A stretch of 64,000 nt of DNA from positions 1,472,001 through 1,536,000 of the forward strand of contig CM000207.1 in assembly GCA_000002445.1 (NCBI GenBank), in the 5' to 3' direction. This DNA comes from Trypanosoma brucei. Lineage: Eukaryota. The notes below the pieces were generated by a model that saw nothing but the letters and a program-made list of their open reading frames with translations, was not told the DNA's origin and ran no database searches. A program made the position numbers and the translations under genes. Positions 26,069 through 30,343 of this stretch are shown here, piece by piece. The number at the start of each line of letters is the position of its first letter. The first letter of the stretch is position 1.

Positions 26069-29000
26069 CTATCGGTGCAGAGGAGGTAACGAGGGAAGTT
26101 CCCGCCCACCCTTCTTCGGCACATCCTCAACACGCACATGCCTGAGCACTCCTGGCGGCATTGGGCGCCATCGCAAAAGTCGTTTGACTGTCTCCCGCTC
26201 CGCTGTCATGAATTCGGTATCCGGCACGGGTGGTACTCCCCGCGGGTACCTCAGCGACTTCGCCCTATTTTCGCGCTCGACTGCCTCCATTGCGGATTGT
26301 CTTCGGGCGCCCACCTCAACGAGATTCTCGACCAAATGCCGTTGTTGTCGACGGAGAGCATCCGCATCAAGACGTTTGACGCGAAGACTTTCTCGCGTTG
26401 ACTCTATATCGCGGAGTAACATTTCCATGGCCTGGTCGTGGGTCGACAGTATAACCTCATCGGCATCAATGCCAACGTTCATCTCATTGATTTCCTCCTC
26501 CTGATGAGTCGTGAGCATACAGCGTTTGATGGGCCGACCGGAGCATAACTCAAGCATCTGCATCTCTGTATGGTACGTCTCAAATCGGAAGGCAACACGG
26601 ATGTCGGAAAGATGCGTCCGCAGGGGGTCATTTCCAAGAGACGAGCTCATATACCAACAATCACCGATCGCCTCTCGCTTAAACGTATAATCAAACCCAC
26701 ACTGAAGCACGGAGTTGCGCGCGATTTCACATAGATCATTCGGGGATAAACCCCACACCCGTGCCGCAACGCTGTATTCTTCGATAAGTGGTTCTTGCGT
26801 CTGGTGAAACATCATCGGATCATCGGTACTAAGTGAAACATTCAGTCCGCGTCTAAAAAATTCTGGGAACGGATTGTTCAAAAACCTCAAAAAAAGCGCG
26901 TTGTTGCTCAGCGGCGAAACGTGCAAACCAATCCGCGAAAGATAGTACAAGTACTGCATAGGAGGATCCTTACGAAGATTGATGCCGTGGCATATGCTAT
27001 TGGCGCAGAGAAACGCCCCATAGAGGTGGCCAACGGATCCAGATTCTCCACAGTGCGGCCGCAGGGCAAATGTCGAAAAGCCACGCGAGGCGCGGAACTC
27101 ATTGAGTGTGCGGATGTTGGCATACAAGTAGTATAGATAGTAGTCGTAGGAGGGATTTTCGACGGACGTCCACGCCCATGGGGATACCACGGTGAAAGGT
27201 GTGTCTATCGTTGCTTCGTTGTCGACAGAATCAAAACCGCTCACATGGTTCAAGAAATTATGCACCAGTGGATGCTGCGACGGGTGCAAAGATGCCTCCC
27301 AAAGCGGCTGGAAGATATTCTGAAGGTACTGGCCGAAACTGCCGATGATATTTTGGGCACGGAACACCTTGTAAACACGTGGAACCTGGATGATCCATTT
27401 GTTGTGTTGTGAAGACATACCGTGTGTAGAGAACCAGAGAGCAAGGCTATCCCATTCCTTGACGTTGGTCCCATAAATCGAGACACGATTCTCAGCATAC
27501 GTATGTCGATCTCTTGAGTATTGAGCAAACACGTCATGAATCAACTCAGCAAAATACCGCCCTTTCATAAAGTTGTCCGTTTTGAGCAGTAGCGAACGCA
27601 TGTCAGGTGATTCAAGAGGATTATATTTATTATTGAAATTGTCAAACCGCTCGAACAATGTGTGGTCCGCCTGAACATTAAGCTGATCAACTGTCAGATT
27701 CGGTGTGATACCGTTGTTCTTAAAGAACTGGGCGAGTGTGAGGATTGTATCGCCCTTCTTAAAGGCGATATCGTCACCACTGTAGACAAGCTTCTTCACT
27801 ACGAAATTCAGAAGTTGTCTACCGGTCATTCCAGCCGCCATGTGAATGTGCGTATCCACCTTAACCGCTTGATAAATGTCTCGGTTTGATGATGTACGCT
27901 CTTCCGTCGTCCCTGCCTCGTTGGCGTGGTTGAGGGCAAGGTGTAGACGAAACTTGTGCTCAAGATTTTCCAACCGTTGGTGCGCAAAGTCCTTCACCTC
28001 TGGGCGTGAACAAATTCCATGAAGTTCAGCCAAATCACTATTAAAGGCCTCCAGTGTGGGAACATGCCGAGGCCACGCGTGGACGACATTCTTTGGGAAC
28101 GAAATGAAAACTGCGTCACTAGCGGCATATGTCCAGTCATCTTCATTGAAACTATCTGTTTTCCTCCGGAAGTCGGCTTCGACTGTACGCTCCGAGGTTG
28201 TTTCCCATGGATTAGGCGGTTCCCATATGTACTTAAAACGCAAATCTAGCGCCCGCGCGACGTGAGGGGCGGCGGCGACCGCTGATTTCACTTCCTTTAG
28301 TGGTCCACTTAGTACCGTACGGGGAAAACGAATGCGCATGTCCAAGACAGTGTCGTATTCCACTTCCTTCACGCGACTCAGGTAGTACCACCGTGAAGGG
28401 CCGGCAACCTCCTGTGGTGACAATTGGTTGAGGCGCAAGTCACGAAGCAAACTATGTTCTAGCTCCCACGATTCTTCACGAAATGCGAGACGCACGTTTG
28501 TCACCTGACTCTTTTCAAACTCGTTACCGTCGACACCCCGATGATACCGCTGCCCAAGCCATTCCTTCTTCCGCTCCGATGGAAAGGAAGACATTATGAC
28601 ACTGTTTCGTGCTAGCTCCGTAACATCTAGGAAACTCAAACGAAATAAATTCATTGCAGTTCCATATTCCTCTATCAATGGCGTCATACTGTGATGAAAG
28701 TAAAGGGGCGCATGTGTACTTATCGCCACCTTGAGGCAGCGGTGTAGAAAGTTAGGAAGGGGATGCTTCTGGTATGGAGTGACACCGCGCACATGATCGT
28801 GAAGGGGACTGACAGTAAGACCAACGCCGTGGAGACCGCAAAGATATTGCAACACGGGGTAATCCATAATTCTCGTGGCTCGCGTAATCACGTCCCCTAG
28901 CAAATATCCAGCCAGAAGCGCGTTCACACAATTCTGGTGAGTGCCACTAATGCGGAGTTGGAAAGTGTTGAGCCCCCTCATTTTTCTAAGATCATTCAGA

Positions 29001-30343
29001 ACCTTCATGTTTGCATAGATGTAATACACGTAATACAATCCATTCGGCTTGTCTTCATAGTTAATATCGCTTGGTACAGGTGATTCCACGTCCAAATCCG
29101 CCTCAACACCGGTAGACACGGCCTCAACTTGAAAGCCACCAAGCTGCTTTAACAGCCAAACAAGAGAGGAATACTTTTGTGTTGATGGTTGTAATGTGGC
29201 CTTGAAGAGCGGCAGAAAAAGGTTATCAAGCTGGTCTTGGATTGTTTTGCATTCAACCGCGTAGTTCACCCCGGAAGGAACCTCGTGCTTCAAACGGAGC
29301 TCCAGGATCCACATATTATTTTTGTAGGGTCCAATGTTCTGCCCATGTAGTGCCTCTGCAATATCGAACAACTCTCCAGGGTAGGTTGCATACACTGGAA
29401 TAGAGTACTCCGTCGCTTGTACATTATATGTCCGCTGTTCCTCCCTCTGCATCCGACGCTGAAGAAAGCGCGCCGTGCAGGAACCCCGAAGGTGAAGAAA
29501 GCTGTACCGCAGTTCCGCACTGAGTGGTTTATTGTCACGTTTACGATCGTCTTTATCATAATTTCCATGATATAATTGCCACCCCAGGCCCTCGACAGTC
29601 AGACGTGTGGGATCCTCCACGCCATTAGCTTGGAACAGTTCCCTCAAAGTGGAGTTGGATCCGTCGCGCAAGCGAATCGGGGCATCAGGGGTGTGGCGAT
29701 ACCAATCTTGGATGAAGTCCAACAGCTCCTGACCATCAGGGAATCGTGACAGGAGAACACAATTATCTACCTTCGTGACGTTGGAAAAGACCCCACCGGC
29801 CTTGCTAAAGCTATGTCTTTCCTCAATATCGGCATTAAGAAGGAAAAACATCCTAGACCGCTCCTGTATAATGTTCAGCCGGTGCGAACAAGCTTTAATG
29901 CATGTTGTATTCCCGACAGTCAGTTTCAGCTGCTGCACATCCTTGACAAACTTTTTCCACGGTTGTGAACACACAATTGACACATCCCTGCAAGAGGCAC
30001 GATAAACACCATCCTCCTGTGAAATAGATACATGCTTCAGATTTGCTGACAAATGTGAGACCTCGTTAGACTTCTTATACTGGGTCCTCATGTCGATGGC
30101 AAGATCGAGACGTTTGTACACCTTGCGCAAATCCACTCCGCCGTCATCTCCGTCGATGACCACCTTGAACATATTTGATTCCTGCAACTGACATTTCACG
30201 TAGTCATTGCGCCCTTCAGTAGTTGCAGTTGGATGCGGTTGCGGTGACTGGCCGAACTGATTCACACTCTGCCATGGCCTAAGAAAAAATGAGCTACGCC
30301 CGGGAGCCAGAGACACACTCATTCTTGCCTCCTCCCCTAACAC
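26069..30343 (-). CDS. AMP deaminase, large form with duplicated deaminase domain (N-terminal copy degenerate)
   Basis: 1424 aa. Domain 2 (aa ~775-1265) carries all AMPD signatures: [67 protein letters not shown]. Domain 1 (aa ~265-640) aligns along its length ([34 protein letters not shown]…[21 protein letters not shown]) but lacks HxH, HCGE and DD. Confidence 0.85.
   Translation of the reverse strand: [1424 protein letters not shown]

Follow-up and report, generated by a model that had tools for sequence, protein, structure and literature searches.

The window, that is, the whole 64-kb stretch of Trypanosoma brucei DNA analysed here, contains a gene for an AMP deaminase (AMPD) whose product comprises two AMPD modules in one chain, the rear one catalytically complete and the front one apparently dead. 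All parts of this gene lie on the minus strand. The open reading frame (ORF) listed at 26069-30343 has 1424 codons and begins with a GTG at 30343; the first ATG, at 30322, is situated downstream of a polypyrimidine tract and an AG and is the real start of the gene, so that the product has 1417 residues. The coding sequence of the tandem AMPD extends over 26069..30322, with the stop codon at 26069-26071. Residue numbers given below follow the ORF and exceed those counted from the ATG by 7. An identical 1417-residue protein is called on contig CZPT02001873.1 of the NCBI assembly GCA_001457755.2, which we take to be that of Trypanosoma equiperdum OVI.

Both halves of the protein match the Pfam family PF19326 (AMP_deaminase; gathering cut-off 27 bits). 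The match of the front unit (unit 1) covers residues 126-634 and profile positions 120-625 of 630 with 282 bits (E-value 9e-84), and that of the rear unit (unit 2) covers residues 722-1264, starting at profile position 78, with residues 775-1265 alone scoring 609 bits. In a direct BLASTP comparison, the two halves are 28% identical over 504 columns (E-value 5e-41). The segments that precede the two barrels, the arms, are homologous as well: an hhalign comparison of residues 52-160 with residues 668-795, built on alignments of 17-19 tandem proteins, yields a probability of 98.6% and an E-value of 5.4e-16 over 106 columns. On these alignments, the repeat unit is the whole conserved AMPD module, arm plus barrel, with unit 1 spanning residues ~55-634 and unit 2 residues ~670-1264. 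An earlier reading of the window, referred to here as the original prediction, had proposed two collinear AMPD-like domains and quoted several peptide blocks from them. The blocks are all found in the ORF where it had placed them, and the profile comparison of the halves that it suggested as a check reveals a similarity far beyond chance. Its assignment of the N-proximal copy to residues ~265-640 holds with respect to homology, but the boundaries have to be moved, to a core of residues 126-634 plus an arm of residues ~55-125.

In the order of translation, the gene thus delineated begins with the N-terminal arm of unit 1 (residues 55-125; 29969..30181), identified by its hhalign match to the arm preceding unit 2, and continues with the unit 1 core (residues 126-634; 28442..29968), a complete AMPD barrel that is predicted to be catalytically dead, i.e., a pseudo-deaminase. 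A spacer of ~35 residues (residues 635-669; 28337..28441) separates the units; it is predicted to be flexible, the predicted local distance difference test score (pLDDT) being below 50 at residues 641-663 (residues 542-564 of the two-unit model described below). The arm of unit 2 (residues 670-758; 28070..28336), delimited by hhalign and by the Pfam match that begins at residue 722, is followed by the unit 2 core (residues 759-1264; 26552..28069), which scores 648 bits in hmmsearch, and by a C-terminal tail of 160 residues (1265-1424; 26072..26551). The tail consists of a charged, probably helical stretch and a subsequent motif, KRLLRW(R/K)PMPP, common to the Leishmania orthologue P0121 (P-numbers denote relatives in our sequence set). 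Long charged tails after unit 2 are frequent in euglenozoan tandem AMPDs.

Catalytic residues, fold and conservation of the two units

A profile derived from 12 ordinary AMPDs served to locate the AMPD units of the window protein as well as those of 164 relatives. Seven columns were then read in each unit: those of the zinc ligands H391, H393, H659 and D736 of AtAMPD and those of its catalytic residues E662, H681 and D737. Unit 2 displays the signature HHHEHDD (H832, H834, H1097, E1100, H1119, D1174 and D1175). The zinc-binding HxH box with H832 and H834 is found in KVDTHIH (residues 828-834; 27842..27862), the zinc ligand His1097 and the catalytic Glu1100 in RPHCGE (residues 1095-1100; 27044..27061), the catalytic His1119 in ICHGIN (26978..26995), and the zinc ligand Asp1174 together with the catalytic Asp1175 in LSTDDP (residues 1171-1176; 26816..26833). 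The substrate contacts are present, too: in the crystal structure 2A3L, the K-Y pair of FNxKYNP and the D-D pair of STDDP approach coformycin 5'-phosphate to within 3.1 Å (PMC3042610), and unit 2 keeps the former as K906 and Y907 in its 13-residue substrate loop (27617..27655), which was assigned from column conservation and these contacts. With every sequence feature of an AMPD in place, unit 2 is predicted to be the enzyme that converts AMP into IMP and NH3 (EC 3.5.4.6).

In unit 1, by contrast, all seven positions are replaced, and the signature reads CLSHRHA (C195, L197, S466, H469, R488, H544 and A545): the zinc ligands have become C195, L197, S466 and H544, and H469, R488 and A545 stand in place of the catalytic Glu, His and Asp. 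The degenerate HxH box is KVDNCVLLS (residues 191-199; 29747..29773), with Cys195 and Leu197 for the two His; the counterpart of RPHCGES is RISGTHQ (residues 464-470; 28934..28954), with Ser466 for the zinc-binding His and His469 for the catalytic Glu; ICHGI corresponds to ITRAT (28874..28888), with Arg488 for the catalytic His; and LSTDDP corresponds to ISTHAP (residues 541-546; 28706..28723), with His544 and Ala545 for the zinc-binding and the catalytic Asp, respectively. Judged from column conservation, the K-Y pair is lost along with the motif FxRFDNFNxKYNP that surrounds it. The Tyr of the pair is Arg269 in the window protein and is kept in just 9% of 23 euglenozoan front units, and the degenerate substrate loop (16 residues; 29525..29572) is predicted to be disordered, with a pLDDT below 50 at residues 259-271 (model residues 210-222). 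In Plasmodium AMPD, replacement of each of the seven equivalent residues by Ala abolishes complementation of yeast amd1 (bioRxiv 10.1101/447789). With its four zinc-binding positions altered, its three catalytic residues replaced and its K-Y contacts gone, unit 1 is predicted to be a pseudoenzyme that would neither hold zinc in the canonical site nor deaminate AMP.

The original prediction of a catalytically complete C-proximal copy and a dead N-proximal copy is therefore sustained, the former by the presence of all seven residues and of K906-Y907, the latter by the seven replacements and the inactivity of the equivalent Plasmodium Ala mutants (10.1101/447789). The change from DD to HA is likewise found, the columns of D1174 and D1175 being occupied by H544 and A545. 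Two details need to be amended. The HxH box, described as lost from the N-proximal copy, is rather substituted in place as KVDNCVLLS. The reported replacement of HCGE by GTHQ is real, but its register is one residue off, as the profile alignment pairs H1097 and E1100 with S466 and H469, i.e., with SGTH.

Despite the loss of the catalytic site, unit 1 is predicted to retain the complete AMPD fold, consisting of an arm and a distorted (beta/alpha)8 barrel. An AlphaFold model of residues 50-650, computed from an alignment of 22 tandem proteins, has a mean pLDDT of 86.3 and a predicted template-modelling score (pTM) of 0.89. In a Foldseek search of the PDB, this model matches human AMPD2 (8HU6) with a template-modelling (TM) score of 0.84-0.85 on both normalisations (E-value 1e-34, 26% identity) and Arabidopsis AMPD (2A3L) with a TM score of 0.84, whereas adenosine and adenine deaminases score far lower (TM ~0.4). 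Unit 2 matches 8HU6 with a Foldseek E-value of 7e-47. The deaminase fold that the original prediction had assumed for the N-proximal domain is accordingly recovered in the model.

The two units have evolved at different rates. Between the window protein and its Leishmania orthologue, the unit 1 cores are 51% identical with 8 gapped columns in 506, as compared with 83% identity for the unit 2 cores; the arms are 42% (unit 1) and 68% (unit 2) identical, the spacer 59%, the C-terminal tail 42% and the N-terminal tail 15%. Within Leishmania, identity amounts to 89-92% in the unit 1 core and to 97% in the unit 2 core, so that the former evolves approximately three times faster (8-11% versus 3% differences). 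Unit 1 nevertheless appears to be under selection and not free to drift, because its 51% identity between Trypanosoma and Leishmania contrasts with the 15% of the N-terminal tail.

What is conserved in unit 1 can be specified with the aid of 83 reference columns that are conserved to at least 95% in 110 catalytically intact AMPD domains. Among 23 front units of Euglenozoa, 34 of these columns are preserved in 80% or more, and 18 in fewer than 30%. The largely lost columns include those of the three zinc-ligand His, N904, Y907 and R916 of the substrate loop, R953, S955, D1038, D1041, Y1066 and H1106. The kept columns are mostly structural (Gly, Pro, Asn and Leu), and to these are added charged positions in the C-terminal third (PLIEEY, D573, E576, K592, R618, R622 and E629). 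Two of the kept columns, E1188/E558 and D1203/D573, match human AMPD2 E778 and D793 in our own mapping via PfAMPD E608 and D623, which have been placed with these human residues, sites of mutations in pontocerebellar hypoplasia (10.1101/447789). The old catalytic columns differ even between orthologues, CLSHRHA in the window protein corresponding to ALTKRES in Leishmania and to yet another combination in P0295, and only two columns, both Gly, are conserved specifically in front units. Because of this variability and the near absence of front-specific columns, a new active site or a specific ligand site in the old pocket of unit 1 is argued against; the pattern points to a role that is carried by the fold and the surfaces of the unit.

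Identity, relatives and genomic surroundings

Within the window, each of the 24 ORFs of at least 250 residues is read from the minus strand, an arrangement resembling that of a kinetoplastid polycistronic unit. Upstream of the AMPD gene are genes for a SCAMP and for a cyclophilin-TPR protein, the T. brucei identifiers being Tb927.9.9750 for SCAMP (PMC5790291) and Tb927.9.9780 for Cyp40 (LmjF.35.4770; PMC9538636). The closest relative of the window protein in the exhaustive search described below is a Leishmania cluster containing L. major CBZ13110.1, a protein paired by reciprocal best hits with Tb927.9.9740, which is annotated as 'AMP deaminase, putative' (Table S1 of 10.1101/2024.04.19.590284). 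As synteny and closest relative agree, the window gene is identified as the orthologue of Tb927.9.9740. The domain entry of the latter lists only 'PF00962 (AMP deaminase)', and the protein has been localised to the outer paraflagellar rod and the cytoplasm; the same paraflagellar-rod proteome contains a second AMPD-like protein, Tb927.9.7180, as well as adenylosuccinate lyase and adenylate kinases (10.1101/2024.04.19.590284).

When residues 1-774 were compared exhaustively with 1.84 billion cluster representatives by HMMER, 1073 relatives were retrieved, and approximately fifty of the best 150 of these are longer than 1200 residues and have at least two matched stretches. A word-indexed homologue search with the front half as the query had returned only single-module AMPDs of ~33% identity and no kinetoplastid relatives, but it missed the Leishmania orthologue cluster that is present in the same collection (E-value 2.5e-288 in the exhaustive search), and its lack of kinetoplastid matches is misleading. 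By source names, tandems with a degenerate front unit occur in Kinetoplastea (Trypanosoma, Leishmania and Papus), in Diplonemea (Diplonema papillatum, Namystynia and a source labelled 'Hpha', interpreted as Hemistasia) and in Euglenida (Entosiphon and Euglena gracilis). In every one of these proteins, the front unit is devoid of the HHHEHDD signature, while the rear unit is either intact, changed from D to G at the last position, or dead (NRSEYDS, NHQEHNQ and similar). The dead-front, live-rear layout is thus shared with Leishmania and the other genera named, which was the comparison with kinetoplastid orthologues that the original prediction called for.

Several observations indicate that the front units are more closely related to each other than to their own rear partners. 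In 21 of 23 cases, a euglenozoan front unit has its nearest neighbour in the front unit of a different protein, and its own rear partner ranks only 15th to 109th among the neighbours. Identity among the front units of Euglena, Entosiphon and Diplonema amounts to 49-50%; with their respective rear units, it is only 35-39%. In a neighbour-joining (NJ) tree of 103 units, calculated from 507 profile columns with capped Kimura distances after 11 fragmentary or very divergent proteins had been left out, the 17 remaining front units fall into a single clade in every one of 100 bootstraps. The paralogue groups within this clade (window/Leishmania/P0295; P0130/P0131/P0133; P0129/P0139/P0142; P0124/P0125/P0135) recur in the subtree of the rear units. 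Because the two subtrees mirror each other, a single ancestral tandem is likely to have predated the divergence of the sampled euglenozoan lineages, and later duplications of the whole gene would have given rise to the several families of tandem paralogues.

The original prediction had spoken of an ancient intragenic duplication. Its antiquity is borne out by the absence of a DNA-level repeat and by the Euglenozoa-wide layout; however, front units are 30% identical to euglenozoan rear units and 31% identical to the AMPDs of other eukaryotes, and owing to this equal distance a duplication in the euglenozoan stem is indistinguishable from a fusion of older paralogues. A recent duplication was considered and rejected: the halves share no DNA repeat beyond chance 18-23-mers, and their protein identity is only 27-28%.

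Some of the paralogues seem to have abandoned catalysis altogether. In the tandems P0124, P0125 (T. vivax KAH8604123.1), P0126, P0135, P0141 and P0162, the rear unit is dead, too (e.g., NRSEYDS), and these double-dead 'AMP deaminases' are probably without deaminase activity. A further family, comprising P0161/P0282 (T. brucei Q386C9, XP_828464.1), P0163, P0175, P0194, P0204 and P0244, has the rear signature HHHEHDG, with STDGP for STDDP, and a very degenerate front unit that scores ~100 bits. Its deaminase activity is doubtful, because the equivalent Asp-to-Ala mutant of Plasmodium AMPD is inactive (10.1101/447789). Two relatives stand apart. P0146, from a Logan assembly, has the full HHHEHDD signature in both units, which are mutually nearest in the NJ tree; this tandem looks like a separate, younger duplication. 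P0131 is a predicted protein of 7575 residues with a tandem AMPD-like pair in its last ~1400 residues; gene models were probably fused in the assembly from which it comes.

At a distance of 5 kb from the AMPD gene, there is another gene whose enzyme-like product has a dead site. This ORF of 355 residues (35141-36208, minus strand) matches solved GAPDH structures (E-value 7e-49), and the catalytic Cys of SCTTN aligns to a Pro ('iicsgaPlavalap' versus 'vinnasCttnclap'), the His being retained. From its position, orthology to Tb927.9.9820 is expected; the latter is assigned to the paraflagellar rod in a TrypTag-based list. The downstream neighbour of the AMPD gene (24491-25690, minus strand) has only a sub-threshold BRCT match of 21.7 bits. 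An ORF of 722 residues (39508-41676, minus strand) matches the HSP70 profile from end to end, with just 219 bits, and represents a divergent member of that family. Between 43700 and 49800, a region of ~6 kb between minus-strand genes is without any ORF of at least 140 residues; the AT skew rises to as much as +0.31 at 44-46 kb, the GC skew turns positive, and from 43.7 to 49.8 kb no tandem repeats (TRF), Rfam families or tRNAs (ARAGORN) were detected.

Possible roles of the front unit

The anatomy of the tandem is solid and its age well supported, subject to the caveats of the NJ analysis given below; the function of unit 1 is put forward as a hypothesis. AMPDs are homo- or heterotetramers assembled from dimers (PMC12246493; PMC13277832), with a twofold dimer interface and, in AMPD1, a K287-D361 salt bridge between the subunits of the dimer (PMC12246493), and their activation by ATP and inhibition by GTP and phosphate map to the catalytic domain, although the position of the site has not been located (PMC13277832). 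Given this anatomy and age, we favour, with moderate confidence, the view that unit 1 is a non-catalytic protein partner of the live module, forming with it an in-cis pseudo-heterodimer akin to the 'prozymes' of trypanosomatids. Unit 1 would act through protein contacts and not through its old pocket: the dead unit would stand in for a second catalytic subunit, and two chains could rebuild a particle of four modules with only two live sites. In such a particle, the dead module may stabilise or tune the live one, and it may additionally present a docking surface for the paraflagellar rod.

Several findings weigh against this partner role or against the age on which it builds. The 35-residue flexible spacer allows intramolecular pairing, but does not demand it. 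The two-unit AlphaFold model (residues 100-1275; pLDDT 82.1) has a pTM of only 0.61 and is ambiguous on the placement of the units. No significant coiled coil was detected in the C-terminal tail, as its crude heptad score is equalled by 24% of shuffled sequences. In the double-dead paralogues, AMPD-fold modules are kept without a live partner in the chain, which fits a pure scaffold at least as well. Finally, NJ trees of fast-evolving domains are prone to long-branch attraction, by which the front clade may be inflated.

A more far-reaching version of the partner hypothesis appears unlikely to us. According to it, unit 1 would be an obligatory in-cis 'prozyme' that pairs with the live unit across the normal AMPD dimer interface, giving a half-of-sites dimer that mimics the tetramer and has an altered control by ATP, GTP and phosphate; live/dead and dead/dead tandems would, together with adenylate kinases, adenylosuccinate lyase and the Cys-less GAPDH-like protein, constitute a module for buffering adenine nucleotides in the paraflagellar rod. 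Slightly less improbable, if still rather doubtful, is the main rival, a function of unit 1 primarily as a docking or targeting scaffold, i.e., as an inert, stably folded body of AMPD shape through which the enzyme is attached to the paraflagellar rod or other partners, with little effect on catalysis by unit 2. Such a scaffold would be compatible with the partner role and is not exclusive of it. It would be in keeping with the double-dead tandems, which retain the AMPD fold without the chemistry. The paraflagellar rod and the tandem layout alike are, as far as is known, distributed throughout the Euglenozoa. The location of Tb927.9.9740 in the outer paraflagellar rod and the presence of Tb927.9.7180, adenylosuccinate lyase and adenylate kinases in the same proteome point in this direction, but the protein is cytoplasmic, too (10.1101/2024.04.19.590284). 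Amoebozoa, which have no paraflagellar rod, seem to have evolved live/dead AMPD tandems separately. Moreover, a flagellum is lacking in Perkinsela. The orthologue is nevertheless retained in this organism, as seen in an analysis that covered organisms without a flagellum (10.1101/2024.04.19.590284).

The remaining explanations fare less well. Unit 1 might be an allosteric sensor that binds AMP, ATP, GTP or phosphate, either in the old pocket or in the ATP site of the family, and signals to unit 2. A dead copy could retain an effector site such as that inside the AMPD catalytic domain (PMC13277832), and unit 1 has kept charged invariant residues outside the catalytic set (R155, E174, D193, H550, E558, E559, K592, R618 and R622); the residues of the pocket are gone, however, including the K-Y contacts and FxRFDNFNxKYNP, those that replace them differ between Trypanosoma and Leishmania, and the counterpart of the substrate loop is predicted to be disordered, all of which makes a sensor quite improbable. 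A functionless relic of the duplication, the removal of which is not selected for, would account for the roughly threefold faster evolution of unit 1 within Leishmania, its far greater divergence between genera and the free drift of the catalytic positions. It would not be expected to preserve an open frame of ~580 codons in every sampled euglenozoan lineage and in several paralogue families, 51% identity between Trypanosoma and Leishmania with almost no indels (as against 15% in the N-terminal tail), 34 family-invariant structural positions and a confidently predicted fold, and we regard this account as very improbable. A new catalytic activity arising from new residues in the old pocket is even harder to credit. 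Three of the seven substituted positions in the window protein are potential metal ligands (Cys195, His469 and His544), but Leishmania has A, K and E in these columns and P0295 differs again, and no alternative conserved constellation emerges, the only two front-specific columns being Gly; a conserved new metal site of Cys195, His469 and His544 is ruled out by the Ala, Lys and Glu of Leishmania. That two adjacent AMPD genes were joined by an assembly or reading error can practically be dismissed, considering that the frame is unbroken across the junction, that the same 1417-residue gene is found in GCA_001457755.2 and that the same two-unit layout recurs in independent genomes and transcriptomes.

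In parasites unable to make purines, AMPD connects the pools of adenine and guanine nucleotides, and it helps to set the adenylate energy charge. If the live module operates as one half of a built-in pair with the dead one, conclusions from kinetics, structures or drug design on single-module AMPDs could not be transferred directly to this protein, and each chain would have half the zinc and active sites that the annotation implies. Several trypanosomatid 'AMP deaminase' genes, having two dead units or the D-to-G change in STDDP, would not encode enzymes at all. Domain databases give two profile matches for tandem AMPDs, and the raw architecture can hence be recovered from them. The dead state and completeness of the front unit, its age across the Euglenozoa and the existence of double-dead paralogues appear to be undescribed so far: a full-text search of the accessible papers found no duplicated or dead AMPD module described in any organism, and the papers found to mention the trypanosomatid enzyme treat it as a plain AMP deaminase (including 10.1101/2024.04.19.590284).

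Comparison with known systems

Single-module AMPDs such as human AMPD2 (8HU6), Arabidopsis FAC1/AMPD (2A3L) and yeast Amd1 share with both units the PF19326 family and the fold, down to the helical arm before the barrel; their zinc and catalytic constellation and their substrate loop are identical to those of unit 2. They consist, however, of one module behind a divergent, non-homologous N-terminal region and assemble from four identical or isoform subunits, whereas the N-terminal region of the window protein consists of another AMPD module, a dead one.

Tandem pairs of a live and a dead domain are a known kind of arrangement. In the JAK kinases, with their kinase and pseudokinase, and in the D1-D2 pair of receptor tyrosine phosphatases, live and dead homologous domains are joined in one chain, and the dead one regulates or docks; these have the fold and chemistry of kinases or protein tyrosine phosphatases, in contrast to the amidohydrolase barrel of the AMPD tandem. 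Closer in fold is the dead dihydroorotase-like domain of fungal Ura2/CAD, a member of the amidohydrolase superfamily that serves as a structural element in a multi-domain protein of nucleotide metabolism, but this domain belongs to another family of the superfamily and has no live copy beside it in the same chain.

The tandem AMPDs of Amoebozoa, P0137 (Soliformovum), P0140 (Pelomyxa), P0150 (Entamoeba invadens), P0138 and P0143, likewise have two AMPD modules per chain, one of which is usually without the catalytic Glu and/or the second Asp. Their polarity is reversed, a live front unit preceding an impaired rear unit that keeps its zinc ligands, and a B-box-like Cys/His segment is inserted between the units (e.g., CSDCNKTFCHQCDDVIHRSSTLRSHKR). 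As the amoebozoan units fall outside the euglenozoan front clade in the NJ tree and do not group with the euglenozoan front units, these tandems probably arose separately. That a similar design seems to have been reached a second time suggests that live/dead pairing may be of general benefit to this tetrameric enzyme.

The trypanosomatid prozymes of AdoMetDC and deoxyhypusine synthase provide a further parallel, since they, too, involve a dead paralogue beside a live one, and in the same organisms. In these systems, the dead copy pairs with the live one, replaces its partner in the homo-oligomer and controls its activity (PMC6221367, PMC3663545). Prozymes are encoded by separate genes, and their pairing and activation have been shown by experiment, whereas both AMPD copies reside in one ORF and are known from sequence. 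The tandem AMPD layout is not confined to trypanosomatids, but extends to prokinetoplastids, diplonemids and euglenids. With the window protein, the occurrence of dead paralogues beside live enzymes in trypanosomatids would be extended to fused pairs, an arrangement far older than the trypanosomatids themselves.

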